The position numbers and the translations under genes were made by a program. DNA of 64,000 bases from Escherichia phage vB_EcoM_C2-3, in the sequence record OK076929.1; one strand, given 5' to 3'. Below are positions 1,977 through 50,470 of the stretch, piece by piece. Each line of letters opens with the position of its first letter. Within the stretch, counting starts at the first letter, position 1. The notes under the pieces were generated by a model, which had not been told where the DNA came from, searched no databases, and saw nothing but the letters and a program-made list of their open reading frames with translations.

Positions 1977-2014
1977 TTAGTATATTAAATCTACAAATTA
2001 AAACAGGAAATAAG

Positions 2015-2690: not shown

Positions 2691-2717
2691 CTATCAACTA
2701 CTGATATAGAAAACAAC

Positions 2718-6328: not shown

Positions 6329-6859
<531 letters not shown>

Positions 6860-6863
6860 AGTT

Positions 6864-6894
6864 GTTTACTTTCTCCTAGAATTGTGATAGTATA
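6864..6894 (+). promoter_or_regulatory. early promoter upstream of denV
   Basis: gtttac 6864-6869, tagtat -10 about 18 bp downstream. Confidence 0.45.
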
Positions 6895-6918
6895 TTCACA
6901 GTTACTTGGAGGGATAAA

Positions 6919-7335: not shown

Positions 7336-7481
7336 ATAACATGGGAATAACCTGGACCTCATGATTCTGTGAGGGATTCCCGCCAACCTGTAATAAGGTC
7401 GAGCCCAAGTGCGGTAATGGGTAAATACAGAAATGGACAATTCATGCGCCATGGAATGGCCCAAACCTAGAGAGAACAAAA

Positions 7482-26831: not shown

Positions 26832-28645
26832 CAATTGAAAAAGAAATTGAAGGATTGATTCATAAAACTAATAAAGACCTTTTAAACGAGAATGCTAATA
26901 AAGATTCTCGTGTTTTTCCAACTCAACGGGACCTTATGGCTGGTATTGTGTCTAAACACATTGCCAAAAATATGGTCCCGTCTTTTATTATGAAAGCGCA
27001 TGAAAGCGGAATTATTCATTTCCATGATATTGATTATTCCCCTGCTCTTCCATTTACTAATTGTTGTTTAGTAGATTTAAAAGGAATGCTTGAAAACGGA
27101 TTTAAGCTTGGTAATGCGCAGATTGAAACTCCTAAATCAATTGGCGTTGCTACTGCAATTATGGCACAAATTACTGCACAGGTTGCTTCTCACCAATACG
27201 GCGGAACGACTTTTGCTAATGTAGATAAAGTACTTTCTCCTTATGTTAAACGCACCTATGCAAAACATATTGAGGATGCAGAAAAATGGCAAATCGCCGA
27301 TGCACTGAATTATGCCCAATCTAAAACAGAAAAAGACGTATACGATGCATTCCAAGCTTATGAATATGAAGTAAATACTCTCTTTAGTTCAAACGGACAG
27401 ACTCCTTTTGTAACAATTACATTTGGTACAGGAACTGACTGGACTGAACGAATGATTCAGAAAGCAATTTTGAAAAATCGTATTAAAGGTCTTGGTCGTG
27501 ATGGGATAACTCCTATTTTCCCTAAACTTGTTATGTTCGTTGAAGAAGGTGTTAACCTTTATAAAGACGACCCGAACTATGATATTAAGCAGCTTGCTCT
27601 AGAGTGTGCAAGCAAAAGGATGTATCCTGATATTATTTCAGTTAAGAACAATAAAGCTATCACCGGTTCATCTATTCCTGTTTCTCCAATGGGTTGTCGT
27701 AGTTTCTTGAGTGTATGGAAAGATTCGACTGGTAATGAAATTCTTGATGGACGTAATAATCTTGGTGTTGTAACACTGAATCTTCCTCGTATTGCGTTGG
27801 ATTCTTATATTGGAACACAGTTCAATGAACAGAAATTTACTGAATTGTTCAATGAGCGAATGGATTTATGTTTTGAAGCTTTGATGTGTAGAATTAGTTC
27901 CTTAAAAGGAGTTAAAGCGACTGTTGCTCCTATTCTTTACCAAGAAGGTGCATTCGGGGTTCGTCTTAAACCTGATGACGATATAATTGAGTTATTTAAA
28001 AATGGTAGAAGTTCAGTGTCTTTAGGATACATTGGTATTCACGAATTGAATATTCTTGTCGGTCGTGATATTGGACGAGAAATTTTAACTAAAATGAATG
28101 CTCATCTTAAACAGTGGACTGAAAGAACTGGATTTGCTTTTAGTTTATATTCGACTCCTGCTGAAAACCTTTGTTATCGCTTCTGTAAACTTGATACAGA
28201 AAAATATGGAAGTGTAAAGGATGTTACTGATAAAGGCTGGTACACTAATAGTTTCCATGTTTCAGTAGAAGAAAATATTACTCCGTTTGAAAAGATTTCT
28301 CGTGAAGCCCCATATCATTTCATTGCGACAGGTGGTCACATTTCTTATGTTGAACTTCCTGATATGAAAAATAACCTAAAAGGTCTTGAGGCTGTCTGGG
28401 ATTATGCTGCACAACATTTAGATTATTTTGGTGTTAACATGCCAGTAGATAAATGTTTTACGTGTGGAAGTACCCATGAAATGACTCCTACTGAAAACGG
28501 ATTTGTTTGTTCTATTTGTGGAGAAACTGACCCTAAAAAGATGAACACAATAAGAAGAACATGCGGATATCTTGGAACTCCTAGCGCTGTCCCATGGAAT
28601 TTAGGTAAAATGAAAGAAATGGTAAAACGAGTAAAACATGCATAG
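26828..28645 (+). CDS. nrdD: anaerobic ribonucleoside-triphosphate reductase NrdD (uninterrupted)
   Basis: 605 aa continuous ORF; C-terminal zinc ribbon CFTCG...CSICG and glycyl radical motif RTCGYLG. Confidence 0.95.
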   Translation: MTIEKEIEGLIHKTNKDLLNENANKDSRVFPTQRDLMAGIVSKHIAKNMVPSFIMKAHESGIIHFHDIDYSPALPFTNCCLVDLKGMLENGFKLGNAQIETPKSIGVATAIMAQITAQVASHQYGGTTFANVDKVLSPYVKRTYAKHIEDAEKWQIADALNYAQSKTEKDVYDAFQAYEYEVNTLFSSNGQTPFVTITFGTGTDWTERMIQKAILKNRIKGLGRDGITPIFPKLVMFVEEGVNLYKDDPNYDIKQLALECASKRMYPDIISVKNNKAITGSSIPVSPMGCRSFLSVWKDSTGNEILDGRNNLGVVTLNLPRIALDSYIGTQFNEQKFTELFNERMDLCFEALMCRISSLKGVKATVAPILYQEGAFGVRLKPDDDIIELFKNGRSSVSLGYIGIHELNILVGRDIGREILTKMNAHLKQWTERTGFAFSLYSTPAENLCYRFCKLDTEKYGSVKDVTDKGWYTNSFHVSVEENITPFEKISREAPYHFIATGGHISYVELPDMKNNLKGLEAVWDYAAQHLDYFGVNMPVDKCFTCGSTHEMTPTENGFVCSICGETDPKKMNTIRRTCGYLGTPSAVPWNLGKMKEMVKRVKHA

Positions 28646-29468
28646 GTATTATATAATTTATAAAATAACAAATATAATTAATTCAAAGGAATATATCGGT
28701 GCGCATAGCACCGATAACATAAATGACGGTTATATGGGGTCAGGAACATTGATTCGTGCCGCTTTATTAAAATATGGTAGAAAAAATTTTAATAAAGAAA
28801 TTTTACATGTTTTTGATAATGAAAAACAAATGTATGATAAAGAAGCTGAACTCGTAACCGAAGAGTATTGTCTAAAAGAAAATACATATAATATTAAACC
28901 TGGTGGAAAAGGTGGAACTGCCTATGAACAGACACTTGAACATCGCCGCAAAAATAGTTTAGCAAATAAAGGTAAAAAGAGAACAGAAGAAACTAAAATA
29001 GCTATTTCACGTGCTTTAAAGAAATATAAACGTACGCCAGAGCATCAAGCAAATTTAAATAAAGCCGTAAGCATAGCTATGAAGCGAAAAGATGTTAGAA
29101 GTAAATTAGCTGGAGAGCGGTCTGAGAAAGATAAATTATCTATATCAAACGGTGTTAAAAAATATTACAATTCTTTGAGTGAAGAAGAACGCGAACTTCA
29201 TCGCAAGCGAATTATTGAAGGTAAAAAGAATTCTCCCATGTCATTGGAATCTAGACAAAAGCTTTCAAAAGCTTTAAAAGGACTTCAAGTTGGTTCAAAA
29301 AATCCAATGTATGGAAAAATTTCTCCAACTAGCAAAACCGTTTCAGTTGACGGTATTAAATATGATTCAATTAAAAAGTGCTCAAATGCCATAAAAGTTT
29401 CTAGACATCTTATACTAAAACGCTGTAATTCTACTGATGAAGCTTGGAAAAATTGGATATTATTATGA
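28638..29468 (+). CDS. free-standing GIY-YIG homing endonuclease (Seg-like)
   Basis: N-terminal YYIIYKITN...KEYIGAHS GIY-YIG motif, Lys/Arg-rich DNA-binding tail; overlaps nrdD stop and nrdG start. Confidence 0.7.
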   Translation: MHRYYIIYKITNIINSKEYIGAHSTDNINDGYMGSGTLIRAALLKYGRKNFNKEILHVFDNEKQMYDKEAELVTEEYCLKENTYNIKPGGKGGTAYEQTLEHRRKNSLANKGKKRTEETKIAISRALKKYKRTPEHQANLNKAVSIAMKRKDVRSKLAGERSEKDKLSISNGVKKYYNSLSEEERELHRKRIIEGKKNSPMSLESRQKLSKALKGLQVGSKNPMYGKISPTSKTVSVDGIKYDSIKKCSNAIKVSRHLILKRCNSTDEAWKNWILL

Positions 29469-34277: not shown

Positions 34278-35480
34278 ATGAAAGTATGTATTTTTATGGC
34301 TCGAGGTCTTGAAGGTTGCGGTGTAACTAAATTTTCTCTTGAGCAGCGTGATTGGTTTATTAAAAATGGTCATGAAGTAACTTTGGTTTATGCTAAAGAT
34401 AAATCATTTACTCGTAATTGTGCGCATGATTATAAATCATTTTCAATTCCGGTTTTATTGGCAAAAGAATACGATAAAACACTTAAGCTGGTAAATGATT
34501 GTGATATTCTAATTATCAATTCAGTTCCTGCTACTTCAGTTGAAGAAGACACTATTAATAACTATAAAAAAATTATTGATAACATTAAACCTTCGGTTCG
34601 TGTTGTAGTTTATCAACATGACCATTCTTCTCTTTCTTTGCGCCGAAATTTGGGATTAGAAGAAACTGTTCGTCGAGCTGATGTTATTTTTAGTCATTCT
34701 GATAATGGCGATTTTAATAAAGTTCTGATGAAAGAATGGTATCCTGAAACAGTTTCTCTGTTTGATGATATTGAAGAAGCACCGACAGTATATAACTTTC
34801 AGCCTCCTATGGATATTGCGAAGGTTCGGTCAACCTACTGGAAAGATGTTTCTGAAATTAACATGAATATCAACCGTTGGATTGGTCGTACGACTACATG
34901 GAAAGGTTTTTATCAGATGTTTGATTTTCATGAAAAACATCTTAAACCTGCAGGACTAAGTACTATTATGGAAGGTCTGGAACGTTCTCCAGCGTTCATT
35001 CCTATTAAAGAAAAAGGAATTCCATACGAGTATTATCGTCTTCATCAAGTAGACCAAATTAAAATTGCTCCTAATTTGCCAACGCAAATTCTTGACCGTT
35101 ATGTAAATAGCGAAATGCTTGAACGCATGAGTAAATCCGGATTTGGTTATCAGCTGAGTAAGTTGGACAAAAAATATCTACAACGTTCTTTAGAATATAC
35201 TCATCTCGAGCTTGGTGCATGTGGAACAATTCCGGTATTTTGGAAATCTACTGGCGAAAATTTAAAATTCCGTGTTGATAATACTCCTTTGACCTCGCAT
35301 GATAGCGGTATCATTTGGTTTGATGAAAATGACATGGAATCAACATTTGAACGTATTAAAGAACTGTCATCTGACCGAACTCTTTATGACCGTGAACGCG
35401 AAAAAGCTTATGAATTTTTGTATCAGCATCAAGATTCAAGCTTCTGCTTTAAAGAACAGTTTGACATTATTACAAAATAA
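34278..35480 (+). CDS. a-gt: DNA alpha-glucosyltransferase
   Basis: 400 aa, recognised as T4 alpha-gt. Confidence 0.9.
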   Translation: MKVCIFMARGLEGCGVTKFSLEQRDWFIKNGHEVTLVYAKDKSFTRNCAHDYKSFSIPVLLAKEYDKTLKLVNDCDILIINSVPATSVEEDTINNYKKIIDNIKPSVRVVVYQHDHSSLSLRRNLGLEETVRRADVIFSHSDNGDFNKVLMKEWYPETVSLFDDIEEAPTVYNFQPPMDIAKVRSTYWKDVSEINMNINRWIGRTTTWKGFYQMFDFHEKHLKPAGLSTIMEGLERSPAFIPIKEKGIPYEYYRLHQVDQIKIAPNLPTQILDRYVNSEMLERMSKSGFGYQLSKLDKKYLQRSLEYTHLELGACGTIPVFWKSTGENLKFRVDNTPLTSHDSGIIWFDENDMESTFERIKELSSDRTLYDREREKAYEFLYQHQDSSFCFKEQFDIITK

Positions 35481-35519: not shown

Positions 35520-35660
35520 ATGATATTTCTTGGATATGTGATACTTTTTCTTGCATTTTATCTATTCACTAGAGCATGTTGGATTGGGTTCTTTAGCACA
35601 CCAGATGGGTTTATTTCAATAATTTTATTTTGCATTTCAATGACGGTTCTTGATATATGA
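35520..35660 (+). CDS. hypothetical small membrane peptide (46 aa)
   Basis: Hydrophobic small ORF, ATGA-coupled to gene 47. Confidence 0.35.
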   Translation: MIFLGYVILFLAFYLFTRACWIGFFSTPDGFISIILFCISMTVLDI

Positions 35661-36676
35661 AAATTTTAAATTTAGGTGATTGGCATTTAGGCGTTAAAGC
35701 CGATGATGAGTGGGTTCAATCCATTCAGTTGGATGGAATTAAACAAGCAATAGAATATTCTAAGAAAAATGGAATTACTACATGGATTCAATACGGCGAT
35801 ATTTTTGATGTGCGAAAAGCAATCACGCATAAAACTATGGAGTTCGCTCGTGAAATAGTTCAAATGCTTGATGATGCTGGTATTACCCTACATACTGTTG
35901 TAGGAAACCATGATATGCACTTTAAAAATACTTTAACTCCAAATGCCTCTACTGAGCTTTTGGCTAAATATCCTAATGTTAAAGTGTATGATAAGCCTAC
36001 TACAGTAGATTTTGACGGATGTTTAATTGATTTAATTCCTTGGATGTGTGAAGAAAATACTGGTGAAATTCTTGAGCACATCAAAACTTCATCTGCTTCT
36101 TTTTGCGTCGGTCACTGGGAACTGAATGGATTTTATTTTTATAAAGGAATGAAATCTCACGGTCTTGAACCTGATTTCCTTAAGACTTATAAAGAGGTGT
36201 GGTCTGGTCACTTCCATACTATCTCTGAGGCTGCTAACGTCAGATATATTGGGACACCATGGACACTAACTGCAGGTGACGAGAATGACCCTCGTGGGTT
36301 CTGGATGTTTGATACAGAAACAGAACGAATGGAATTTATTCCAAACAACACTACCTGGCATCGTAGAATTCATTATCCATTTAAAGGAAAAATTGACTAT
36401 AAAGATTTTACAAATCTATCAGTACGTGTTATAGTAACTGAAGTAGACAAAAATCTAACGAAGTTCGAATCTGAACTAGAAAAAGTTGTGCATTCATTAC
36501 GAGTTGTGTCAAAGATTGATAACTCTGTCGAGTCAGATGACAGTGAAGAAGTTGAAGTTCAATCTCTTCAGACGTTGATGGAAGAATACATTAATGCAAT
36601 TCCAGACATCACTGATTCTGACCGTGAAGCACTTATTCAATATGCAAACCAGCTATATGTAGAGGCAACACAATGA
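35657..36676 (+). CDS. 47: recombination nuclease subunit gp47 (Mre11-like)
   Basis: 339 aa; phosphoesterase motifs LGDWHLG, GNHD. Confidence 0.9.
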   Translation: MKILNLGDWHLGVKADDEWVQSIQLDGIKQAIEYSKKNGITTWIQYGDIFDVRKAITHKTMEFAREIVQMLDDAGITLHTVVGNHDMHFKNTLTPNASTELLAKYPNVKVYDKPTTVDFDGCLIDLIPWMCEENTGEILEHIKTSSASFCVGHWELNGFYFYKGMKSHGLEPDFLKTYKEVWSGHFHTISEAANVRYIGTPWTLTAGDENDPRGFWMFDTETERMEFIPNNTTWHRRIHYPFKGKIDYKDFTNLSVRVIVTEVDKNLTKFESELEKVVHSLRVVSKIDNSVESDDSEEVEVQSLQTLMEEYINAIPDITDSDREALIQYANQLYVEATQ

Positions 36677-36936: not shown

Positions 36937-37123
36937 CATTAATGATGAATTCATAGCAAATATTGATTATACCGAAGAAGATTCTAGATATGTTGGAATA
37001 ATTTATATCACATCAAAAGCAGCACAAGGTGTTGTTTGCATGGCTGAATTTGATGAATACTTTTTAGATTATGATGATATGATAGAATGGTCTAAAAGAT
37101 ACATTAAAAGGAATCTTTTGTGA
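36908..37123 (+). CDS. hypothetical protein (about 71 aa) whose N-terminus is duplicated in downstream HNH gene
   Basis: N-terminus FSTFDINDEFI; 19-bp ttgacattaatgatgaatt repeated at 36933 and 37136. Confidence 0.4.
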   Translation: MHTVKFSTFDINDEFIANIDYTEEDSRYVGIIYITSKAAQGVVCMAEFDEYFLDYDDMIEWSKRYIKRNLL

Positions 37124-37974
37124 AGAATTTTAAACTTGACATTAATGATGAATTTTTAATAAAGGAATTAGTTGAAAAATTAGCGTTGAGTGAAGAAGAC
37201 GCCAAGTCTTACATTAATTTTATTTCTATGAATTCAACTGTTAAAACTCCAGGTAAAACGGAAGCACATCACGTGCTTCCTAAATCAATATTTCCTGAAT
37301 ATTTAAAATCTACATGGAATTTAGTTAATTTAAGTCATTTTAATCATTTTAAAGCACATTTCTTATTAGCAAAAGGTAAAAATGGAAAAATGCTAAATGC
37401 TTTAAATAGAATGATGTCAGGAAAAACATATAAAAATTTATCTTTAGCCGAAGTTGATTTAATAGCTGCTGAATATAGTTTTATAAAACAAGATGTAAGT
37501 GACACAATATCAAAAAGGCTTCAACAATATTATTCAAATCCGCAAAATAGAAATGCTGCTAGAGAAAGGGCATTAAAATATTTTTCAGTAGCAAAAAATA
37601 GGAAAGATAACAAAGAAAGATTAAATAGTTTTAAAACAAAACAAAAAATTTCAATGGCTTCAAGGGAATGGTTTAATAACGAAGAAAATAAAATTAAACA
37701 CCAAAAGGCTGTTCGTGCTGCTTTATCAAAACCTGAATATAAAATAGCTATATCAAATTCAGTAGCTGCTAGTTGGAAAAATCCGGAGATTAGAAAAGCT
37801 CATATAGCATCTCGACGAAAAGGCTATCATTGGGATAATAAAGATAAATTGTATGAATTGTGGATATCATATAATCGTCCTAAACATGTGATGTTTAGGA
37901 AAATGTTAGTTAAGAACGGATATCCAATAGAGGCTTCATTACAGGCTTTAGTTAAAGAATTTTCTTCATTGTGA
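37120..37974 (+). CDS. free-standing HNH homing endonuclease
   Basis: HNH-like motif HHVLPKS...NLVNLSHFNHFKAH; GTG start overlapping upstream stop; between 47 and 46. Confidence 0.65.
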   Translation: MKNFKLDINDEFLIKELVEKLALSEEDAKSYINFISMNSTVKTPGKTEAHHVLPKSIFPEYLKSTWNLVNLSHFNHFKAHFLLAKGKNGKMLNALNRMMSGKTYKNLSLAEVDLIAAEYSFIKQDVSDTISKRLQQYYSNPQNRNAARERALKYFSVAKNRKDNKERLNSFKTKQKISMASREWFNNEENKIKHQKAVRAALSKPEYKIAISNSVAASWKNPEIRKAHIASRRKGYHWDNKDKLYELWISYNRPKHVMFRKMLVKNGYPIEASLQALVKEFSSL

Positions 37975-37989: not shown

Positions 37990-39672
37990 ATGAAATCATT
38001 TAAACTTAATAGAGTAAAATATAAAAATATAATGTCAGTTGGTCAAAATGGAGTTGACATTCAATTAGATAAGGTTCAAAAAACTCTTATTACTGGCCGA
38101 AATGGCGGTGGTAAGTCTACTATGTTAGAAGCCATCACATTTGGGCTTTTTGGCAAACCATTTCGTGATGTAAAGAAAGGTCAATTAATAAACAGCACAA
38201 ATAAGAAAGAACTTTTAGTTGAACTGTGGATGGAATATGATGAGAAAAAGTACTATATCAAAAGAGGACAAAAACCAAACGTTTTCGAAATCACCGTTAA
38301 CGGTACACGTCTTAATGAATCTGCCAGCAGTAAAGATTTCCAAGCAGAATTTGAACAGCTTATCGGAATGTCATATGCCAGTTTCAAGCAGATTGTTGTC
38401 CTTGGTACAGCAGGGTATACCCCTTTCATGGGTTTGTCGACCCCTGCGCGAAGAAAGCTTGTGGAAGACCTGCTTGAGGTAGGAACATTAGCTGAAATGG
38501 ATAAGCTTAATAAAGCACTAATACGTGAATTAAATTCACAAAACCAAGTGCTTGATGTTAAAAAAGATAGTATTATCCAACAAATTAAAATATATAATGA
38601 TAACGTTGAACGCCAGAAAAAATTAACGGGTGACAACCTTACTCGTCTACAAAATATGTATGATGATTTGGCAAAAGAAGCTAGAACGCTAAAATCGGAA
38701 ATAGAAGAAGCTAATGAAAGATTAGTTAATATTGTTTTAGATGAAGACCCGACTGATGCATTTAATAAAATCGGTCAAGAAGCAGTTTTAATTAAATCAA
38801 AAATTGACTCGTATAATAAAGTCATTAATATGTATCACGAAGGTGGATTATGTCCAACCTGCTTGTCACAATTAAGTTCCGGTGATAAAGTTGTTTCTAA
38901 AATTAAAGATAAAGTTTCTGAATGTACACATTCGTTTGAACAGCTTTCAACACACCGTGATAATTTAAAAGTTCTTGTTGATGAATACCGAGATAATATT
39001 AAAACCCAACAGTCGTTGGCAAATGATATTCGCAATAAAAAGCAATCTCTAATCACGACGGTAGATAAAGCTAAAAAAGTTAAAGCGGCTATAGAAAAAG
39101 CATCTTCTGAGTTTATTGACCATGCTGATGAAATAGCACTGCTTCAAGAAGAACTTGATAAAATTGTTAAGACAAAAACTAATTTAGTAATGGAAAAATA
39201 CCACCGAGGAATTTTGACTGATATGCTCAAAGATTCTGGTATTAAAGGTGCTATTATTAAAAAGTACATTCCATTATTTAATAAGCAGATTAACCATTAT
39301 CTTAAAATAATGGAAGCGGATTATGTGTTTACATTAGATGAAGAATTTAATGAGACAATTAAATCCCGTGGTCGTGAAGATTTTAGTTATGCTTCATTTA
39401 GTGAAGGTGAAAAGGCACGAATTGATATTGCTCTTTTATTTACTTGGCGTGATATTGCTTCTATCGTATCTGGTGTTAGTATTAGTACATTAATTCTTGA
39501 TGAAGTGTTTGATGGGTCATTTGATGCCGAAGGTATTAAAGGTGTAGCTAATATTATAAATTCAATGAAAAACACTAATGTTTTTATAATTTCGCATAAA
39601 GACCATGACCCGCAAGAATATGGTCAGCATCTTCAAATGAAGAAAGTTGGTCGATTTACTGTAATGGTTTAA
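37990..39672 (+). CDS. 46: recombination ATPase gp46 (Rad50-like)
   Basis: 560 aa; Walker A GRNGGGKST, coiled-coil middle, zinc hook CPTC. Confidence 0.9.
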   Translation: MKSFKLNRVKYKNIMSVGQNGVDIQLDKVQKTLITGRNGGGKSTMLEAITFGLFGKPFRDVKKGQLINSTNKKELLVELWMEYDEKKYYIKRGQKPNVFEITVNGTRLNESASSKDFQAEFEQLIGMSYASFKQIVVLGTAGYTPFMGLSTPARRKLVEDLLEVGTLAEMDKLNKALIRELNSQNQVLDVKKDSIIQQIKIYNDNVERQKKLTGDNLTRLQNMYDDLAKEARTLKSEIEEANERLVNIVLDEDPTDAFNKIGQEAVLIKSKIDSYNKVINMYHEGGLCPTCLSQLSSGDKVVSKIKDKVSECTHSFEQLSTHRDNLKVLVDEYRDNIKTQQSLANDIRNKKQSLITTVDKAKKVKAAIEKASSEFIDHADEIALLQEELDKIVKTKTNLVMEKYHRGILTDMLKDSGIKGAIIKKYIPLFNKQINHYLKIMEADYVFTLDEEFNETIKSRGREDFSYASFSEGEKARIDIALLFTWRDIASIVSGVSISTLILDEVFDGSFDAEGIKGVANIINSMKNTNVFIISHKDHDPQEYGQHLQMKKVGRFTVMV

Positions 39673-43081: not shown

Positions 43082-45778
43082 ATGAAAGAATTTTATATCT
43101 CTATCGAAACAGTCGGAAATAACATTGTTGAACGTTATATTGATGAAAATGGAAAGGAACGTACTCGCGAAGTAGAATATCTTCCGACTATGTTTAGGCA
43201 TTGTAAGGAAGAGTCAAAGTACAAAGACATCTATGGTAAAAATTGCGCTCCTCAAAAATTTCCATCAATGAAAGATGCTCGAGATTGGATGAAGCGAATG
43301 GAAGACATCGGTCTCGAAGCTCTTGGTATGAACGATTTTAAACTCGCTTATATCAGTGATACGTATGGTTCAGAAATTGTTTATGACCGAAAATTTGTTC
43401 GTGTAGCTAACTGTGACATTGAGGTTACTGGTGATAAATTTCCTGATCCAATGAAAGCTGAATATGAAATTGATGCTATCACTCATTATGATTCAATTGA
43501 TGATCGTTTTTATGTTTTCGACCTTTTGAATTCAATGTACGGTTCAGTATCAAAATGGGATGCAAAGTTAGCTGCTAAGCTTGACTGTGAAGGTGGTGAT
43601 GAAGTTCCTCAAGAAATTCTTGACCGAGTAATTTATATGCCATTTGATAATGAGCGTGATATGCTCATGGAATATATTAATCTCTGGGAACAGAAACGAC
43701 CTGCTATTTTTACCGGTTGGAATATTGAGGGATTTGACGTTCCGTATATCATGAATCGTGTTAAAATGGTTCTCGGTGAACGTAGTATGAAACGCTTCTC
43801 TCCAATCGGTCGAGTAAAATCTAAACTAATTCAAAATGTGTACGGTAGCAAAGAAATTTATTCTATTGATGGCGTATCTATTCTTGATTATTTAGATTTG
43901 TATAAGAAATTCGCATTTACTAATTTGCCGTCATTCTCTTTGGAATCAGTTGCTCAGCATGAAACCAAAAAAGGTAAATTACCGTACGATGGTCCTATTA
44001 ATAAACTTCGTGAGACTAATCATCAGCGATACATTAGTTATAACATCATTGACGTAGAATCAGTTCAAGCAATTGATAAAATTCGCGGGTTTATCGATCT
44101 AGTTTTAAGTATGTCTTATTACGCTAAAATGCCTTTTTCTGGTGTAATGAGTCCTATTAAAACTTGGGATGCTATTATTTTTAACTCATTGAAAGGTGAA
44201 CATAAGGTTATTCCTCAACAAGGTTCGCATGTTAAACAGAGTTTTCCGGGTGCATTTGTGTTTGAACCTAAACCAATTGCTCGTCGATATATTATGAGTT
44301 TTGACTTGACGTCTCTGTATCCGAGCATTATTCGTCAGGTTAACATTAGTCCTGAGACTATTCGTGGACAATTTAAAGTTCATCCAATTCATGAATATAT
44401 CGCAGGAACAGCTCCTAAGCCAAGTGAAGAATATTCTTGTTCTCCGAATGGATGGATGTATGATAAGCATCAAGAAGGTATCATTCCAAAGGAAATCGCT
44501 AAAGTATTTTTCCAGCGTAAAGACTGGAAAAAGAAAATGTTCGCTGAAGAAATGAATGCCGAAGCTATTAAAAAGATTATTATGAAAGGCGCAGGGTCTT
44601 GTTCAACTAAACCTGAAGTTGAACGATATGTTAAGTTCAGTGATGATTTCTTAAATGAACTATCGAATTATACTGAATCTGTTCTCAATAGTCTGATTGA
44701 AGAATGTGAAAAAGCTGCTACACTTGCTAATACAAATCAGCTGAACCGTAAAATTCTCATTAACAGTCTTTATGGCGCTCTTGGTAATATTCATTTCCGT
44801 TACTATGATTTGCGAAATGCTACTGCTATCACAATTTTCGGCCAAGTTGGTATTCAGTGGATTGCTCGTAAAATTAATGAATATCTGAATAAAGTATGCG
44901 GAACTAATGGTGAAGATTTCATCGCAGCAGGTGATACTGATTCGGTATATGTTTGTGTAGATAAAGTTATTGAAAAAGTTGGTCTTGACCGATTCAAAGA
45001 GCAGAACGATTTAGTTGAATTCATGAATCAGTTCGGTAAGAAAAAGATGGAACCTATGATTGATGTTGCATATCGTGAGTTATGTGATTATATGAATAAC
45101 CGCGAGCATCTGATGCATATGGACCGTGAAGCTATTTCTTGCCCTCCACTTGGTTCAAAGGGTGTTGGTGGATTTTGGAAAGCGAAAAAGCGTTATGCTC
45201 TGAACGTTTATGATATGGAAGATAAACGATTTGCTGAACCGCATCTAAAAATCATGGGTATGGAAACTCAGCAGAGTTCAACACCAAAAGCAGTGCAAGA
45301 AGCTCTCGAAGAAAGTATTCGTCGTATTCTTCAAGAAGGTGAAGAGTCTGTCCAAGAATACTACAAGAACTTCGAGAAAGAATATCGTCAACTTGACTAT
45401 AAAGTTATTGCTGAAGTAAAAACCGCGAACGATATAGCGAAATATGATGATAAAGGTTGGCCAGGGTTTAAATGCCCGTTCCATATTCGCGGTGTGCTAA
45501 CTTATCGTCGAGCTGTTAGTGGTCTGGGTGTAGCTCCAATTTTGGATGGAAATAAGGTAATGGTTCTTCCATTACGTGAAGGAAATCCATTTGGTGACAA
45601 GTGTATTGCTTGGCCGTCGGGCACAGAACTTCCAAAAGAAATTCGTTCTGACGTACTGTCTTGGATTGACTACTCAACTTTGTTCCAAAAATCGTTTGTT
45701 AAACCGCTTGCGGGTATGTGTGAATCGGCTGGTATGGACTATGAAGAAAAAGCTTCGTTAGACTTCCTGTTTGGCTGA
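43082..45778 (+). CDS. 43: DNA polymerase gp43 (family B)
   Basis: 898 aa; exonuclease and polymerase motifs (DTDS), recognised as T4 gp43. Confidence 0.97.
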   Translation: MKEFYISIETVGNNIVERYIDENGKERTREVEYLPTMFRHCKEESKYKDIYGKNCAPQKFPSMKDARDWMKRMEDIGLEALGMNDFKLAYISDTYGSEIVYDRKFVRVANCDIEVTGDKFPDPMKAEYEIDAITHYDSIDDRFYVFDLLNSMYGSVSKWDAKLAAKLDCEGGDEVPQEILDRVIYMPFDNERDMLMEYINLWEQKRPAIFTGWNIEGFDVPYIMNRVKMVLGERSMKRFSPIGRVKSKLIQNVYGSKEIYSIDGVSILDYLDLYKKFAFTNLPSFSLESVAQHETKKGKLPYDGPINKLRETNHQRYISYNIIDVESVQAIDKIRGFIDLVLSMSYYAKMPFSGVMSPIKTWDAIIFNSLKGEHKVIPQQGSHVKQSFPGAFVFEPKPIARRYIMSFDLTSLYPSIIRQVNISPETIRGQFKVHPIHEYIAGTAPKPSEEYSCSPNGWMYDKHQEGIIPKEIAKVFFQRKDWKKKMFAEEMNAEAIKKIIMKGAGSCSTKPEVERYVKFSDDFLNELSNYTESVLNSLIEECEKAATLANTNQLNRKILINSLYGALGNIHFRYYDLRNATAITIFGQVGIQWIARKINEYLNKVCGTNGEDFIAAGDTDSVYVCVDKVIEKVGLDRFKEQNDLVEFMNQFGKKKMEPMIDVAYRELCDYMNNREHLMHMDREAISCPPLGSKGVGGFWKAKKRYALNVYDMEDKRFAEPHLKIMGMETQQSSTPKAVQEALEESIRRILQEGEESVQEYYKNFEKEYRQLDYKVIAEVKTANDIAKYDDKGWPGFKCPFHIRGVLTYRRAVSGLGVAPILDGNKVMVLPLREGNPFGDKCIAWPSGTELPKEIRSDVLSWIDYSTLFQKSFVKPLAGMCESAGMDYEEKASLDFLFG

Positions 45779-45790
45779 TAGAATAAATCT

Positions 45791-45812
45791 AGGGACCTCC
45801 GGGTCCCTTTTT
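45791..45812 (+). terminator. intrinsic terminator (agggacc-tccg-ggtccct + TTTTT)
   Basis: 7-bp stem, T-run. Confidence 0.65.
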
Positions 45813-45895
45813 CATACAAGTAATATAAATCTATACTTATGAAAAACAGATGATTCTGGACCTTTAGAATTCCCTAAAAAATTTTTCACAAAACT

Positions 45896-45925
45896 GTTTA
45901 CAAGACTGTTCCTCTGTGGTACTAT
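45896..45925 (+). promoter_or_regulatory. early promoter (repeat cassette)
   Basis: ttttcacaaaactgtttacaagactgttcctctgtggtactatacaactatcaacta; near-identical to 2644-2700 and 19201-19245. Confidence 0.55.
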
Positions 45926-45959
45926 ACAACTATCAACTAATACGGATTTGGAGAATAAA

Positions 45960-46196
45960 ATGAAAATTGTTATGGGATGCTTAGCAGTTTGTTTAGTTGC
46001 ATTAGTAGCAGTTCCATTTGTTAGTGTTGAAAATGATACTCAACCTGTGATTAAATCTAGCACCGTTATTCACACTAATGGTAAAATATCAGTTAAAATT
46101 GATGATAATCTTCATGTGAATACAAATGGATCTTTAGGTGTGCAAATGGGTAATACCTGCATAAGCACTACTGGAGTAATTACTACTTGCATTTGA
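45960..46196 (+). CDS. hypothetical secreted/membrane protein (about 78 aa)
   Basis: Start moved to MKIVMG after GGAG; N-terminal hydrophobic signal-like segment. Confidence 0.5.
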   Translation: MKIVMGCLAVCLVALVAVPFVSVENDTQPVIKSSTVIHTNGKISVKIDDNLHVNTNGSLGVQMGNTCISTTGVITTCI

Positions 46197-46206
46197 GGAA
46201 ATTATT

Positions 46207-46587
46207 ATGAAAATCGCTATTTTGGTTATTGCATTAGGTCTTACTGGTTGTGTAGCTCAAGGACCGGTAGTAAATCAGTCTGATGTAGGAAAAATTGTAA
46301 ACTGTTCAAGCAAGTTTTATAATCCTAATGTCAAGTGTTATAAAGAAGCTCCAAAACAGACAGTAGAACAAATGCAGGCGAATTTTGACGAGGCTATTCG
46401 TCCAGATGAATCTGCTCAAGCATATCGTAATTCTGATGTAATTACACGCGAAGAAAAAATTGAAAACTACTGCGCCGAGCTTTGGGCAAATTGGGCTAAT
46501 AATTACCAATGGCGTACCGGTAAAAATGCTCCGATGGAGTATGTAGTGAATTCTTATAATTCATGTGTAAAAAATTTGACTAAGTGA
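46207..46587 (+). CDS. putative lipoprotein (126 aa)
   Basis: Signal peptide with lipobox LTGC; several Cys in mature part. Confidence 0.55.
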   Translation: MKIAILVIALGLTGCVAQGPVVNQSDVGKIVNCSSKFYNPNVKCYKEAPKQTVEQMQANFDEAIRPDESAQAYRNSDVITREEKIENYCAELWANWANNYQWRTGKNAPMEYVVNSYNSCVKNLTK

Positions 46588-46594
46588 GGAAAAC

Positions 46595-46846
46595 ATGGAA
46601 ACTTTAGTAGCAGGTTCAATTTTTATGGTTTTAGTTTCAGGTGTGTTGGCTATTATTATATACATGCTTCCATGGTTTATCGCCTTGATGCGTGGGTCAA
46701 AATCGACAGTAGGAATCTTTTTCACATCTTTACTGTTTAACTGGTCAATTATTGGTTGGTTTATTACATTTATTTGGTCAATTGCGGGTGAAACTAAAAA
46801 GTCTGCACAACCAAACCAGGTAATTATCATCAGAGAGAAGGAATGA
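46595..46846 (+). CDS. imm: superinfection immunity protein Imm
   Basis: 83 aa two-helix membrane protein, recognised as T4 Imm. Confidence 0.85.
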   Translation: METLVAGSIFMVLVSGVLAIIIYMLPWFIALMRGSKSTVGIFFTSLLFNWSIIGWFITFIWSIAGETKKSAQPNQVIIIREKE

Positions 46847-46992
46847 AAAGCAAAATTATAACAGTGTTGCTTTTAATCTTGATGATTATAATAAGTATAT
46901 ACTATAGTGTAACGGTTCCTCTTATGATTCCAACTATTATTTTAGGTTGGGGTTTATTACTGTTACAAGTTAAATATGAATGTATCAATTGA
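46843..46992 (+). CDS. hypothetical small membrane protein (49 aa)
   Basis: Hydrophobic small ORF, ATGA-coupled to imm. Confidence 0.35.
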   Translation: MKSKIITVLLLILMIIISIYYSVTVPLMIPTIILGWGLLLLQVKYECIN

Positions 46993-46999
46993 GGTTTAA

Positions 47000-47740
47000 A
47001 TGATTAGTGACTCTATGACAGTTGAAGAAATCCGTCTTCATTTGGGGCTTGCATTAAAAGAAAAAGATTTCGTAGTTGATAAAACTGGTGTTAAAACTAT
47101 TGAAATTATTGGCGCATCATTTGTAGCAGATGAACCGTTTATTTTTGGCGCTCTTAATGATGAATACATTCAGCGTGAACTTGAATGGTATAAATCTAAG
47201 AGCTTGTTTGTTAAAGATATTCCAGGTGAAACACCAAAGATTTGGCAGCAGGTAGCATCTTCTAAAGGCGAAATTAACTCGAATTATGGTTGGGCTATTT
47301 GGTCAGAAGATAACTATGCCCAGTATGATATGTGTTTAGCTGAACTTAGTCAAAATCCTGATTCTCGACGTGGTATCATGATTTATACTCGTCCATCCAT
47401 GCAATTTGACTACAATAAAGATGGTATGTCAGATTTCATGTGTACTAATACAGTACAGTACCTGATTCGTGATAAGAAAGTCAATGCGGTTGTTAGCATG
47501 AGAAGCAATGATTGCTGGGCAGGCTATCGTAATGATTATGCTTGGCAAAAATACGTACTAGATAAATTAGTATCTGATTTGAATGCAGGCGACCCATCGC
47601 GGCAATATAAAGCAGGTTCTATTATATGGAACGTTGGAAGTCTTCATGTGTACGAAAATCAGTTTTATTTAGTTGACCATTGGTGGAACACCGGTGAGAC
47701 TCATATTGCTAAAAAGGATTATACTGGAAAATGGAAGTAA
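47000..47740 (+). CDS. 42: dCMP hydroxymethylase gp42
   Basis: 246 aa, recognised as T4 gp42. Confidence 0.95.
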   Translation: MISDSMTVEEIRLHLGLALKEKDFVVDKTGVKTIEIIGASFVADEPFIFGALNDEYIQRELEWYKSKSLFVKDIPGETPKIWQQVASSKGEINSNYGWAIWSEDNYAQYDMCLAELSQNPDSRRGIMIYTRPSMQFDYNKDGMSDFMCTNTVQYLIRDKKVNAVVSMRSNDCWAGYRNDYAWQKYVLDKLVSDLNAGDPSRQYKAGSIIWNVGSLHVYENQFYLVDHWWNTGETHIAKKDYTGKWK

Positions 47741-48372
47741 ATGTGCCACATGTTTATAAGTATAAACATCCTAAAACTAAAAAGTGGTATATAGGAAGTC
47801 ATGATGGTCACAACCCGAATTATGATGGTTCGGGTGTAGTTTGGCAACATGCTAAAAAGAAATATGGAATAAAATCCTTTAATAAAGAAATATTATATGA
47901 AGGACCAATGTTTAGACAGGTTGAAGAAATTATTTTAACTTGTTTAGATGCTGCTAATTGTCCGGATTCATATAATTTAAAGAATGAAGCATGGGGAGGA
48001 AGTTTTCCAGGCAAATTAAATGGAATGTACGGTAAAAAACTATCTCCAGAAGAAAGATATAAGTGCGGAAATGCCTTTCGTGGAATCAAGCGTCCTGATC
48101 ATTCTAAAAGAATGAAAGGCGAAGGTAATCCAATGTATGGTAAAAATGAGCAGGCATATGGAATTATAAATCGAGCCAAGGAAAATTCTGGTAAAACTTA
48201 TGAAGAAATTTTTGGCGTAGAAAAAGCTAAAATAATTAAAGAAACGATGTCTAAAAATCGTAAAGGAAAACCTCATAATTTGATAGAAAAAATATGTCCG
48301 CATTGCGGACTAAAAGGACGTGGGCCAAATATGACAAGATACCATTTTGACAAATGTAAGGCACTTAAATGA
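47731..48372 (+). CDS. free-standing GIY-YIG homing endonuclease (Seg-like)
   Basis: HVYKYKH...KKWYIGSHDG GIY-YIG-like motif, Lys-rich tail, C-terminal CPHCG zinc motif; overlaps gene 42 stop. Confidence 0.6.
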   Translation: MEVNVPHVYKYKHPKTKKWYIGSHDGHNPNYDGSGVVWQHAKKKYGIKSFNKEILYEGPMFRQVEEIILTCLDAANCPDSYNLKNEAWGGSFPGKLNGMYGKKLSPEERYKCGNAFRGIKRPDHSKRMKGEGNPMYGKNEQAYGIINRAKENSGKTYEEIFGVEKAKIIKETMSKNRKGKPHNLIEKICPHCGLKGRGPNMTRYHFDKCKALK

Positions 48373-49211
48373 TTCAATTCGTAATTCCAAGTTATCAGCG
48401 TGTAGGGGCAGTTTCTGCCCTTAATATGTTTCCGACTGATTATGAACCCCATATTGTAGTGCGTGAACACGAAGAAAAAGCTTATTATGATGCTTATGGG
48501 TCTAGAGCTAAAATTGTAACTATTCCTGATGATGTTAATGGAATTGCCGGTACTCGTAAAGCAATTACTGATATGTATGCAGGTCAACGAATCTGGATGA
48601 TTGATGATGATACTACTATTCGTATGAGTTCAATACGAAAGAGAGACGATAAACGGCGTGTAGATAAAATTAATCAATTAACTCGTGAACAGTTCTATGA
48701 ATTGATTCAATATGTTGAAGATGCCATGGATTGCGGGTATTATCACGGTCATGCTCGTCTACCAATTTTTAAAATTACTTCATCTTGGGGTAATTATCGT
48801 GAAAATTCATATGGATTCACGAATACATGGTATGACCTCGGAAAACTTACGACAGAACAAATTGGGTATGGAAAAATTGATTTATGCGAAGATATGTATG
48901 CATTTCTCAATTTAATTAATCAAGGTTATCCGCATTTGGCCTTGTTCAAATATCTAGTTGTATCTGGAAAATCACACGCTCCCGGTGGGTGTAGTTCAAT
49001 TCGTAGTAATTCTAAACATAATAGAGCGCTTGAGCAAATCAATAGAGAGTTTCCAGAGCAAGCTCGTTGGAAAACATCGAATATTGAAAAACGAAAATCG
49101 TTGGGTGAAGAAGACGAGCCATTAAAGGTTCTTCGCATGTGTGTTTCGCGTAAAGAAAAATCAGAAGCATTTCATAAGTTTAATGCTATTCATCCAATAG
49201 CAGTTGATTAA
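48369..49211 (+). CDS. glycosyltransferase, GT-A-like, at the locus occupied by beta-gt in T4
   Basis: VIPSYQR and DDD (DxD-like) motifs suggest GT-A fold; not recognisable as T4 beta-gt. Confidence 0.5.
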   Translation: MIQFVIPSYQRVGAVSALNMFPTDYEPHIVVREHEEKAYYDAYGSRAKIVTIPDDVNGIAGTRKAITDMYAGQRIWMIDDDTTIRMSSIRKRDDKRRVDKINQLTREQFYELIQYVEDAMDCGYYHGHARLPIFKITSSWGNYRENSYGFTNTWYDLGKLTTEQIGYGKIDLCEDMYAFLNLINQGYPHLALFKYLVVSGKSHAPGGCSSIRSNSKHNRALEQINREFPEQARWKTSNIEKRKSLGEEDEPLKVLRMCVSRKEKSEAFHKFNAIHPIAVD

Positions 49212-49288
49212 TGCCTAAATTTATTGTGTTATAATTACTCTATCTTTAACCAGTGAGGAAAATATAATGATGCCTATGGAAAAAATGA

Positions 49289-50470
49289 ATGTCTATTGCA
49301 GATTTAAAATCCCGTTTGATTAAAGCTTCCACTTCTAAAATGACTGCTGAACTGACTACATCTAAATTCTTTAATGAAAAGGATGTAATCCGTACAAAAA
49401 TTCCAATGCTGAATATTGCTATTTCTGGTGCGATTGATGGCGGTATGCAGTCTGGTTTAACTATTTTCGCAGGGCCTTCTAAACACTTTAAATCAAATAT
49501 GTCTTTGACTATGGTTGCGGCATATTTGAACAAATATCCTGACGCGGTTTGTCTATTCTATGATAGCGAATTTGGTATTACTCCAGCTTATTTGCGATCC
49601 ATGGGAGTTGACCCGGAACGTGTAATTCATACGCCAATTCAATCAGTTGAACAGCTGAAAATTGATATGGTGAATCAGCTTGAAGCTATTGAGCGTGGTG
49701 AAAAGGTTATTGTATTCATCGACTCAATCGGTAATATGGCTTCTAAGAAAGAAACGGAAGATGCCTTGAATGAAAAATCTGTGGCAGATATGACTCGTGC
49801 TAAATCACTGAAGTCATTATTCCGTATTGTTACTCCTTACTTTAGCATTAAAAATATTCCGTGTGTTGCGGTTAACCATACAATTGAAACAATTGAAATG
49901 TTTAGTAAAACCGTGATGACAGGTGGTACAGGCGTAATGTATTCGGCTGATACCGTATTCATTATCGGTAAGCGTCAGATTAAAGATGGTTCTGATCTTC
50001 AGGGGTATCAATTTGTTCTAAATGTAGAAAAATCTCGTACCGTTAAAGAAAAAAGTAAATTCTTTATTGATGTTAAATTTGACGGTGGTATCGATCCTTA
50101 TTCTGGATTGTTAGATATGGCTCTAGAATTAGGATTTGTAGTAAAACCTAAGAATGGTTGGTATGCTCGTGAATTTCTTGACGAAGAAACCGGCGAGATG
50201 ATTCGCGAAGAAAAATCTTGGCGTGCAAAAGATACTAACTGCACTACATTCTGGGGTCCTTTATTTAAGCATCAACCATTCCGAGATGCTATTAAACGTG
50301 CTTATCAGTTAGGTGCTATTGATAGTAATGAAATTGTTGAAGCTGAAGTTGATGAATTGATTAACTCAAAGGTTGAAAAATTTAAATCTCCAGAAAGTAA
50401 AAGTAAATCAGCTGCTGATTTAGAAACTGACCTCGAACAGTTAAGTGATATGGAAGAATTTAATGAATAA
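49289..50470 (+). CDS. uvsX: recombinase UvsX (RecA-like)
   Basis: 393 aa, recognised as T4 UvsX. Confidence 0.95.
   Translation: MSIADLKSRLIKASTSKMTAELTTSKFFNEKDVIRTKIPMLNIAISGAIDGGMQSGLTIFAGPSKHFKSNMSLTMVAAYLNKYPDAVCLFYDSEFGITPAYLRSMGVDPERVIHTPIQSVEQLKIDMVNQLEAIERGEKVIVFIDSIGNMASKKETEDALNEKSVADMTRAKSLKSLFRIVTPYFSIKNIPCVAVNHTIETIEMFSKTVMTGGTGVMYSADTVFIIGKRQIKDGSDLQGYQFVLNVEKSRTVKEKSKFFIDVKFDGGIDPYSGLLDMALELGFVVKPKNGWYAREFLDEETGEMIREEKSWRAKDTNCTTFWGPLFKHQPFRDAIKRAYQLGAIDSNEIVEAEVDELINSKVEKFKSPESKSKSAADLETDLEQLSDMEEFNE

Follow-up and report, generated by a model that had tools for sequence, protein, structure and literature searches.

A Seg-type homing endonuclease gene between gene 42 and the T2/T6-type second DNA glucosyltransferase gene of a T-even phage, and its candidate target in gene 42

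The 64,000-nt stretch of Escherichia phage vB_EcoM_C2-3 DNA analyzed here (the window) very probably derives from a T2/T6-like Tequatrovirus. Its 280-aa protein is, in this reading, the second DNA glucosyltransferase known from T-even phages (ggt, also beta-alpha-gt or TAGT), and its 213-aa protein a Seg-type GIY-YIG homing endonuclease that is encoded at the gene 42/ggt junction and would cut the gene 42 of phages lacking it (seg-less phages). More tentatively, we propose that this enzyme targets the segment for residues 168–176 of dCMP hydroxymethylase, that it spread between Tequatrovirus and Jiaodavirus in company with a gene-42 allele resistant to it, and that homing can carry glucosylation cassettes between co-infecting phages. 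Separately, and equally tentatively, allele A of ggt may set an intermediate gentiobiosylation (about 1:2:2), as opposed to a near-complete one with allele B.

The features of the locus are listed in Table 1. The order gene 42, endonuclease, glycosyltransferase, uvsX had been described from the letters of the window alone (the sequence-only reading), and its coordinates agreed with the ORF list to the base; the alpha-glucosyltransferase gene that it placed in the window was also found. Gene 42 encodes 246 aa, and gp42 is 93–95% identical to its T2, T6, and T4 counterparts (BLASTP), with Cys148, Asp179, and Glu60 at the expected positions. The 213-aa ORF shares 10 nt with the 3' end of gene 42, and the stop of this ORF and the start of ggt overlap in an ATGA. 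Since identical or near-identical proteins are encoded in dozens to hundreds of phage genomes, these ORFs are real genes and not chance. Minus-strand ORFs of 43–104 aa inside them were without support and were treated as chance ORFs in AT-rich DNA. In T4, the slot downstream of gene 42 is occupied by beta-gt, as the sequence-only reading had stated; segA, which it left unmentioned, additionally lies between T4 beta-gt and uvsX.

Table 1. Coordinates of genes and sequence features in the window and the evidence for each
Feature	Coordinates	Strand	Evidence
alpha-glucosyltransferase gene (alpha-gt)	34278..35480	+	Pfam AGT PF11440, E 4.3e-237, residues 14-367; PHROG 2888, 8.8e-223
Gene 42, dCMP hydroxymethylase	47000..47740	+	Pfam Thymidylat_synt, 5.2e-15
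Endonuclease-linked diverged tract of gene 42, last ~240 nt	47501..47740	+	Sliding identity, lists of differing positions
Patch 1, codons 168-176, RSNDCWAGY vs RSNDVVFG(F/Y) in seg-less phages	47501..47527	+	Substitution cluster, two genera
Patch 2, HVYENQFY vs HVYSRHFY in seg-less phages	47648..47678	+	Seg-linked cluster in a conserved thymidylate-synthase-family motif
Seg-type GIY-YIG homing endonuclease gene, 213 aa	47731..48372	+	PHROG 314, BLASTP, hhalign, motif alignment, clean insertion vs T2/T6
ggt (beta-alpha-gt, TAGT), beta-glucosyl-HMC-alpha-glucosyltransferase, 280 aa, GT-A fold (predicted)	48369..49211	+	
Hairpin GGGGCAG-TTT-CTGCCC, ggt codons 12-18, just upstream of internal Met20	48403..48423	+	Terminator-like match
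DDD, DxD metal/UDP-sugar-binding motif of GT-A enzymes	48603..48611	+	Invariant in family alignment down to 27% identity
Main allele A/B patch of ggt, residues 89-101 (IRKRDDKRRVDKI)	48633..48671	+	Nucleotide identity and allele table; translation checked
uvsX, downstream boundary of the cassette	49289..50470	+	Pfam T4_UVSX_C, 4.7e-39; RecA, 2.4e-11

The identity of the glucosyltransferase was established by homology. A search against the T2 and T6 enzymes, as proposed in the sequence-only reading, gave 96.4% identity to the T2 beta-glucosyl-HMC-alpha-glucosyltransferase over 280/280 residues and 96.2% identity to the T6 enzyme over 261 aligned residues (BLASTP). The example offered there, a gentiobiosyl-HMC enzyme as in T2/T6, was right: by identity, the gene encodes exactly that enzyme. 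The protein matched the whole 205-position Pfam model TAGT (PF20691; residues 3–207, 40.0 bits against a cut-off of 27.5) and PHROG 842, "beta-glucosyl-HMC-alpha-glucosyltransferase" (5.9e-88), and an identical protein of phage HP3 is annotated with the same name. NCBIfam holds no model for ggt or alpha-gt. Homologues occur in 688 phage records, 474 of them at ≥90% identity. The context is that of the family as well, with ggt located between gene 42 and uvsX and alpha-gt in the same window. T2 and T6 share the gene order 42-ggt-uvsX, the length of 280 aa, the alpha-gt partner, and the ATGA start overlap, whereas in the window ggt is separated from gene 42 by the inserted endonuclease gene. On these comparisons the window glycosyltransferase is the already known T2/T6 enzyme and no new DNA modification system; its assignment is routine annotation, not discovery.

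The N-terminus MIQFVIPSYQR and the DDD at residues 79–81 were confirmed in the translation, and both PSYxR and DDD are invariant across the family alignment. The GT-A-type glycosyltransferase recognized earlier from VIPSYQR and DDD is thus upheld by motifs and profile matches alike. As PDB sequence searches with the ggt protein and the 213-aa endonuclease returned nothing meaningful, the fold of ggt was tested via a predicted model. The AF2 model, of moderate confidence (pLDDT <50 at residues 125–151 and 194–210), showed a predicted GT-A fold with the DxD motif; for the T6 TAGT, a GT-A fold and a sister relationship to GT2 have been described (PMC13216743). GT2-family GT-A enzymes (BcsA, TarP/TarS, SpsA) have in common with ggt the nucleotide-diphospho-sugar transferase fold, the DxD, and the N-terminal beta-strand motif (IPSYxR in ggt, cf. 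IPxYN in GT2). However, identity to them is only 6–17%, the acceptor of ggt is a sugar on DNA, and the C-terminal third (about residues 210–280) has no counterpart among the matches. The ggt enzyme is GT2-like and is presumed to be inverting.

The protein had been described as not recognizable as T4 beta-gt, and this was confirmed by BLASTP (best E 4.6, 7 residues); it did not align full-length to T4 beta-gt or match PF09198, and profile searches did assign it to a glycosyltransferase family. T4 beta-gt (Pfam PF09198) occupies the same syntenic slot downstream of gene 42. Both enzymes take UDP-glucose and form a beta linkage. They differ in acceptor, which is the glucose of alpha-glucosyl-hmC for the ggt enzyme and free hmC for T4 beta-gt, and in fold, GT-A for the window ggt versus GT-B for T4 beta-gt (PMC13216743).

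Alpha-gt together with the ggt enzyme, present in every T-even-type phage but T4, yields gentiobiosyl-hmC (PMC2993671, PMC13216743, PMC13390438). Among T4 relatives, a ggt gene in the beta-gt slot is the norm, from which T4 itself departs. The TAGT gene and T4 beta-gt occupy syntenic positions, and LC-MS of Tequatroviruses with TAGT has revealed gentiobiosyl-dC (PMC13390438). The g-gt product is gentiobiosyl-5hmC, and T6 without g-gt carries alpha-glucosyl groups only (bioRxiv 10.64898/2026.02.25.707755). In the window phage, alpha-gt would place an alpha-glucose on 5-hydroxymethylcytosine, the substrate of the second enzyme, and ggt would add glucose from host UDP-glucose in beta-1,6 linkage onto it to form gentiobiosyl-hmC. 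We infer this transfer from the T2/T6 identity and from LC-MS of phages EL, BGP, and Geo, whose DNA contains alpha-glucosyl- and alpha-gentiobiosyl-methyl-dC (PMC13390438). As the phage is without beta-gt, its DNA should hold unglucosylated hmC, alpha-glucosyl-hmC, and gentiobiosyl-hmC, and no beta-glucosyl-hmC.

A different specificity of this ggt (direct action on hmC, another sugar, or a non-DNA acceptor), resulting in a modification unlike that of T2/T6, is extremely improbable. TAGT homologues also occur alongside beta-gt (CC31) or without any alpha/beta-gt (PMC13216743), so specificity is not uniform across the TAGT family, and the window ggt differs from T2/T6 at seven clustered positions. 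Nevertheless, it is 96% identical to the enzymes that defined the activity and identical at 279/280 residues to the EL, BGP, and Geo enzyme, and alpha-gt is present in the window.

The seven positions (50, 89, 95, 97, 101, 202, and 203) read V-I-K-R-I-S-H in the window ggt (allele A) and I-M-R-C-V-A-Q in T2/T6 (allele B). Around residues 89–101, sliding nucleotide identity to T2/T6 falls to 78–82%, compared to 93–100% in most of the remaining gene. Furthermore, residue 11 is Arg in the window ggt and His in T2. The window allele matches that of EL, BGP, and Geo, for which intermediate gentiobiosylation of about 1:2:2 has been published. Gentiobiosylation amounts to 5% in T2 and 72% in T6, and since each of these enzymes is ~96% identical to the window ggt, its extent is not readable from sequence. 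The A/B allele together with Arg11 is a sequence marker that might explain why the conversion of alpha-glucosyl to gentiobiosyl groups differs among related phages. The endonuclease gene was considered as the "restriction enzyme-like gene" of the Durham phages EL, BGP, and Geo, and its insertion as a cause of their 1:2:2 ratio through lowered ggt expression; both ideas were rejected, as the gene is absent in 8/8 Durham Tequatroviruses checked.

The 213-aa protein had been called a Seg-like GIY-YIG endonuclease, and this assignment held in BLASTP and profile-profile comparison, although the Pfam model GIY-YIG (PF01541) gave no direct match. It matched the homing endonucleases of PHROG 314 (2.3e-31), and its N-terminal 92 residues matched T4 SegA and SegC (BLASTP, E 4e-9 to SegA). 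In hhalign, residues 6–92 aligned with residues 6–100 of SegA/SegC at 96.7% probability (E 3.9e-10), and the stretch matched in SegA corresponds to its PF01541 domain (3.1e-9). Y9, Y20-x-G22, E66, and N82 are common to the protein and SegA/SegC and are kept in a 70%-identical Jiaodavirus copy; in neither the protein nor SegA/SegC is a canonical Arg evident behind YIG. NUMOD3 scored below threshold (18.0 bits against 20.4, two stretches), as did TIGR01453 (24 bits against 56). The C-terminus, CPHC...HFDKC, is a putative zinc-binding motif.

Like T4 SegA, the enzyme is free-standing and carries its Seg-type GIY-YIG domain at the N-terminus, with putative NUMOD3-like repeats behind it. The two are distant relatives (32% identity over 167 aa), and the C-terminal CxxC...HxxxC motif is absent from SegA. 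They also lie on opposite sides of the glucosyltransferase slot, the window endonuclease on the gene 42 side and SegA on the other. T4 SegA cuts uvsX; the window endonuclease would cut gene 42. The label "SegD" in one record was dismissed, since the best T4 match is SegC/SegA at about 32–35% identity and the protein is thus not a T4 SegD orthologue. No named or characterized endonuclease at the gene 42/ggt junction was found in the library of papers searched.

Compared with T2/T6, the endonuclease gene is a precise insertion at the gene 42/ggt junction, with stop/start overlaps kept on both sides. Its distribution is sporadic: it was present in 77 Tequatrovirus records, compared to 474 with a close ggt homologue (≥90% identity). 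In 71/77 records, spanning hosts and continents, the copies are ≥99% identical within genome backgrounds that diverge by ~3%; only 44/474 of the close ggt homologues reach this level. This tighter identity points to a recent spread. Klebsiella Jiaodavirus phages have an endonuclease gene at this junction too, its product 70% identical: in KP185 and Roth67, insertion point and overlaps are those of the window copy, and the gene is likewise linked to gp42 variants of the CWAGY / (E/Q)NQFY type. The host genus differs, and the flanking genes are far more diverged (gp42 protein about 72%, ggt protein 65% identical), which suggests that the element crossed phage genera or came from a third donor. 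Linkage to gene 42 does not extend to distant homologues, as a 29%-identical copy in PSD2001 lies between head-completion and DNA-end-protector genes.

Regarding expression, a sigma-70 promoter scan of 46800–49400 was uninformative (13 sites, 11.9 expected), and a regex search over 45700–49400 found neither T4 late (TATAAATA) nor MotA-box middle promoters. The endonuclease gene appears to be without a promoter of its own and is probably transcribed from an early promoter-like sequence downstream of gene 43, at about 45,900. The hairpin within ggt has an RNA fold z-score of -2.6, and T2, T6, and Jiaodavirus phages have the stem without a change, even at about 65% protein identity.

These data bear on whether the endonuclease gene is still mobile. 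An inactive or decaying relic, or a gene whose only remaining role is that of a co-opted spacer or expression element serving ggt, would be in line with the lack of a Pfam GIY-YIG score and of a promoter. Frameshifted or split copies (fragments of 79–127 aa) occur in REP2/REP3 and PYps5T, and only a C-terminal remnant is left in Klebsiella phage GF. We consider this quite improbable for the window copy: its ORF is intact, the residues shared with SegA/SegC, both proven enzymes, are conserved, also in the Jiaodavirus copy, and the gene is more uniform among phages than ggt.

The evidence for a target of a mobile enzyme comes from gene 42. Its 3' tract is only 67–92% identical to T2/T6/T4, compared to 90–100% in the rest of the gene, and the variant tract (≥90% identity) is found in about 86 phage records. 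In Tequatrovirus and Jiaodavirus, the endonuclease is strictly tied to such a diverged gene-42 end. The link between gp42 type and endonuclease presence was assessed from summary counts and about 20 inspected loci. Patch 1 lies just upstream of the catalytic Asp179 codon. The cluster separating seg+ from seg- phages covers gene-42 nt 502–528 in the window and 504–521 in Jiaodavirus, and the diverged tract starts at the same nucleotides, 502–507 and 513–528, in both genera. Patches 1 and 2 are ~120 bp apart and thus too far from each other for one binding site.

Patch 1 is therefore put forward, from these alignments, as the candidate recognition or cleavage site, with the window copy as the resistant allele. 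During mixed infection, the endonuclease would cut a seg-less gene 42 near nt 500–530 (residues 168–176, adjoining Asp179), and repair would then transfer both the endonuclease gene and the resistant end of gene 42 to the recipient.

Alternatively, an active endonuclease could target the 5' part of ggt or the gene 42/ggt junction in its uninterrupted form, the diverged gene-42 end being a hitch-hiking donor flank. Self-immunity would then follow automatically, since the insertion breaks up the T2-type junction sequence GAGTGGAAATGATTCAATTC. Moreover, an IMG/VR pattern scan for the seg-linked patch returned only two contigs, one with the window arrangement and the other from a phage of a seg-less third lineage (gp42 76% identical) that carries the CWAGY/EKQFY type of gp42. 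The allele can hence be a plain lineage variant, and the variant tract may be native to the third lineage and have travelled with the endonuclease, instead of being a selected immunity change. Still, we regard a junction target as rather unlikely. The divergence is one-sided, with ggt 92–100% identical to T2/T6 from its first bases; the gene-42 variant tract is fixed in its about 86 records and begins at shared nucleotides in two genera. In addition, T4_ev151 lost the endonuclease by a crossover downstream of patch 2 and regained the T2-type junction, but retained both variant gene-42 patches. According to a review (PMC2988022), T4 endonucleases of the free-standing kind mostly cleave at a distance of hundreds of bases from the gene encoding them, which was also counted against the junction.

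With gene 42 as the preferred target, patch 1 gives this unstudied homing endonuclease a concrete predicted target site. Given that its gene adjoins the glucosyltransferase slot, which T4 SegA flanks from the opposite side, homing may transfer alternative DNA-glucosylation cassettes. Which host defences can attack a T-even phage depends on the sugar type of its hydroxymethylcytosine; among these defences are McrBC, GmrSD/BrxU, and the glycosylases Brig1 and Brig3 with BapA. Gentiobiosyl groups are not removable by BapA (bioRxiv 10.64898/2026.02.25.707755). The alpha-gt plus TAGT type thus predicts a sensitivity profile defined by some unglucosylated hmC, no beta-glucosyl-hmC, and BapA-proof gentiobiosyl groups.

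Between gene 42 and uvsX, T4 has beta-gt followed by segA, whereas T2 and T6 carry a single gene in this slot, annotated as beta-glucosyl-HMC-alpha-glucosyl-transferase. The window carries two overlapping genes at this position. The sequence-only reading had placed here a Seg-like endonuclease and a GT-A-type glycosyltransferase unlike T4 beta-gt, with alpha-gt elsewhere in the window, and had named the gentiobiosyl-HMC of T2/T6 as an example of what a different second glucosyltransferase would mean. Its coordinates agreed exactly with the ORF list, the motifs VIPSYQR and DDD were both present in the 280-residue protein, alpha-gt was located, and the slot does hold beta-gt in T4. The features are collected in the table below.

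Features of the gene 42-uvsX region and of related loci (window positions unless a locus and record are named)
Feature	Position	Strand	Remarks
Seg-type gene, nrdD-nrdG	28638-29468		276 aa; PHROG 314, 2.4e-60
alpha-gt	34278-35480		Pfam AGT, 4e-237
gp47	35657-36676		
Third free-standing endonuclease gene	37120-37974		284 aa; homing endonuclease/HNH families, PHROG 655, 2.4e-45
gp46	37990-39672		
Hydrophobic ORF between imm and gene 42	46843-46992		49 aa; PHROG 3610, 5e-26
Gene 42	47000-47740		Pfam Thymidylat_synt
Gene 42, patch 1	47501-47527		codons 168-176
Gene 42, patch 2	47648-47678		
42/ggt endonuclease	47731-48372		213 aa, Seg type; overlaps gene 42 end by 10 nt
CPHCG-x11-H-x3-C	48295-48357		endonuclease residues 189-209
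ggt	48369-49211		280 aa; start overlaps endonuclease stop as ATGA
T6 ggt Q10amber	L001 (MH550421) 4951-4953	minus	syntenic with 48396-48398
ggt codon 11	48399-48401		His in T2
ggt hairpin	48403-48423		GGGGCAG-TTT-CTGCCC
ggt allele stretch	48633-48671		residues 89-101
ggt allele stretch	48972-48977		residues 202-203
uvsX	49289-50470		confirmed by Pfam
ELT1, divided uvsX	L004 (MZ892903) 5390-7875		723-nt homing endonuclease gene
Phage GF junction	L007 (MK421971) 1990-2100		endonuclease remnant
T4_ev151, end of gene 42	L009 (LR597660) 2500-2760		both patches, no endonuclease

A homology search of ggt against the T2/T6 enzyme and glycosyltransferase families, as that reading had proposed, gave consistent matches. 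By BLASTP the protein was 96.4% identical to the T2 enzyme over its full length and 96.2% identical to that of T6, with no detectable similarity to T4 beta-gt. It matched Pfam TAGT (PF20691) above the gathering threshold and PHROG 842 ('beta-glucosyl-HMC-alpha-glucosyltransferase'), and an identical protein is on deposit for phages JEP6 and HP3. Homologues were found by tblastn in 688 phage records, 474 of them at ≥90% identity; about 200, from Klebsiella and Enterobacter phages, lay at 60–80%. Published sources on T-even glucosyltransferases include Petrov et al. The T2/T6 enzyme has been identified with PF20691, a GT-A fold by model and sister to GT2, and the alpha-gt and beta-gt pair of T4 described as a rarity (PMC13216743). 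TAGT and T4 beta-gt occupy syntenic positions, and alpha-gentiobiosylmethyl-dC was found by LC-MS in Tequatroviruses carrying it (PMC13390438). Deletion of g-gt from T6 leaves alpha-glucosyl-hmC (bioRxiv 10.64898/2026.02.25.707755). The cassette is confirmed as observed; its interpretation as a second glucosyltransferase is supported by these matches and the published work, and therefore stands as correct for an already known system. The glycosyltransferase is a known enzyme and the normal state of the genus. DNA of this phage is expected to contain unglucosylated hmC, alpha-glucosyl-hmC and gentiobiosyl-hmC, and no beta-glucosyl-hmC.

Two ggt allele classes were distinguished, allele A with V50, I89, K95, R97, I101, S202 and H203, and allele B with I, M, R, C, V, A and Q at the same positions. 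The former is carried by the window, ELT1 and the Durham Tequatroviruses EL, BGP and Geo, the latter by T2, T6, CP, Solly, TB37, Some and EH2. Published LC-MS data (PMC13390438) give 5hmdC, alpha-glucosyl and gentiobiosyl forms at about 1:2:2 for EL, BGP and Geo; in the five allele-B Durham phages roughly a third is 5hmdC and two thirds gentiobiosyl, with alpha-glucosyl at trace level only. The agreement between allele and LC-MS group (8/8 Durham phages checked) is a correlation to be tested rather than a finding, because EL, BGP and Geo are closely related and have other genes in common.

Both T2 records (L002, MH751506; L027, LC348380) encode His11 in ggt, a position that is Arg in every other sequence of the family alignment, even at 27% identity, as well as Ser251 in place of a nearly invariant Pro. 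The gentiobiosyl share of hmC is only about 5% in T2 and 72% in T6, and these residues are candidates for the low conversion in T2. In the T6 reference record MH550421, ggt is annotated as 261 residues from Met20 because codon 10 reads TAG instead of CAG. In AP018814, the second T6 record, the codon is CAG and the gene is intact at 280 residues. The nonsense mutation appears specific to one stock; a supE host would read it as wild-type Gln. Slightly downstream, still in the 5' part of the ggt coding sequence, lies a hairpin (RNA fold z-score −2.6), after which come a T-rich run and the codon for the internal Met20. T2, T6 and Jiaodavirus phages share the exact stem despite a protein identity of only ~65%; the hairpin could act as an attenuator or in translation. 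Upstream of gene 42, the records of ELT1 and the Durham phages list the 49-codon ORF, whereas those of T2, T4 and T6 do not, despite 87–100% DNA identity.

The 213-residue protein matched PHROG 314 'homing endonuclease' (2.3e-31) and showed 32% identity to T4 SegA (BLASTP, E 4e-9) and 35% to SegC (tblastn). The Pfam GIY-YIG model gave no score and NUMOD3 fell slightly under threshold, but a profile built from the protein and its Klebsiella-phage homologue aligned residues 6–92 to residues 6–100 of SegA/SegC with 96.7% probability, and the aligned SegA region coincides with SegA's Pfam GIY-YIG domain. The Seg-type signature is kept (Y9, Y20-I-G22, Y-x-G-S-G, AKKKYG, E66, Y-N82-x-K, GG). It is a Seg-type enzyme orthologous to no T4 seg gene; a literature search found no publication on it. 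The C-terminal CPHCG-x11-H-x3-C, shared with the Jiaodavirus homologue and missing from SegA and SegC, may form a small DNA-recognition element that binds zinc, comparable to the I-TevI zinc finger.

Further endonuclease genes lie elsewhere in the window. The Seg-type gene between nrdD and nrdG, in the slot of T4 mobC, encodes a protein 34% identical to the 42/ggt endonuclease, and a third free-standing gene lies between gp47 and gp46. ELT1 is the closest relative of the window across the 2.5-kb region of the finding, and its uvsX is divided into two ORFs by a homing endonuclease gene, whereas that of the window is intact.

Promoter scans of the 42/ggt region found no promoter of the endonuclease gene's own. 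Just 3' of gene 43 lie a terminator and an early-promoter-like sequence, and the overlapping genes from there through ggt look like one early transcription unit, probably with translational coupling at both endonuclease overlaps.

Alignment with T2 and T6 revealed a clean insertion at the gene 42/ggt ATGA junction, where the last codon and stop of the endonuclease, AAATGA, re-create the ggt start overlap of the uninterrupted junction. The gene was found in 77 phage records, all Tequatrovirus. Since 71 of these copies are ≥99% identical while the phage genomes that carry them diverge by ~3% from the window, the comparison points to recent horizontal spread. Some Klebsiella Jiaodavirus phages carry a 70% identical homologue at the same junction, whereas in others it is empty. 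Decayed copies occur as well: the ORF is split in REP2/REP3 and PYps5T, and in Klebsiella phage GF a C-terminal remnant is fused to a shortened gene 42. There, gene 42 stops at about codon 211 and continues into the last ~30 endonuclease codons (CPHCGKVGSGPNMTRYHFDKCKDKK) and then ggt, reflecting either deletion of most of the endonuclease and the gene 42 end or a misassembly of this incomplete genome.

Gene 42 is 90–100% identical to T2, T6 and T4 up to nt ~500 and 67–92% identical across its last 240 nt; no such divergence was seen in ggt, on the other flank. Differences begin at nt 502–528 between the window and T2, and at nt 504–521 between Jiaodavirus phages with (KP185) and without (Roth21) the endonuclease. 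Specifically, gp42 of phages lacking it (T2, T4, T6, Roth21, CC31 and the eight Durham phages) reads SNDVVFG(F/Y) and (S/E)RHFY, whereas that of carriers in both genera reads SNDCWAGY and (E/Q)NQFY. Patch 1 (residues 168–176) immediately precedes Asp179, which together with Cys148 is a known catalytic residue of T4 dCMP hydroxymethylase.

A one-sided divergence with a fixed boundary, common to two genera and lying in a conserved catalytic motif, is the pattern predicted by intronless homing. The endonuclease would cut the gene 42 of phages lacking it near patch 1, and repair would then copy the whole stretch from the cut up to and including the endonuclease gene. We give this step an even chance or marginally better. 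The main rival places the target at the gene 42/ggt junction itself, the point of the clean insertion. The variant tract is somewhat more widespread than the endonuclease (~86 versus 77 records), and two genomes have it alone, T4_ev151 and a third-lineage contig from IMG/VR. Because this third-lineage allele exists without the endonuclease, the tract could be a passenger rather than a selected immunity change.

The class of the 42/ggt endonuclease is well known, but this member is unstudied; cleavage near patch 1 is a specific target prediction for it. T4_ev151 retains both patches, while the end of its gene 42 and the junction are T2-type; it is a recombinant that lost the endonuclease by crossing over downstream of patch 2, before the junction. 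It would represent a 'resistant but empty' allele, as the life cycle of homing endonucleases leads one to expect.
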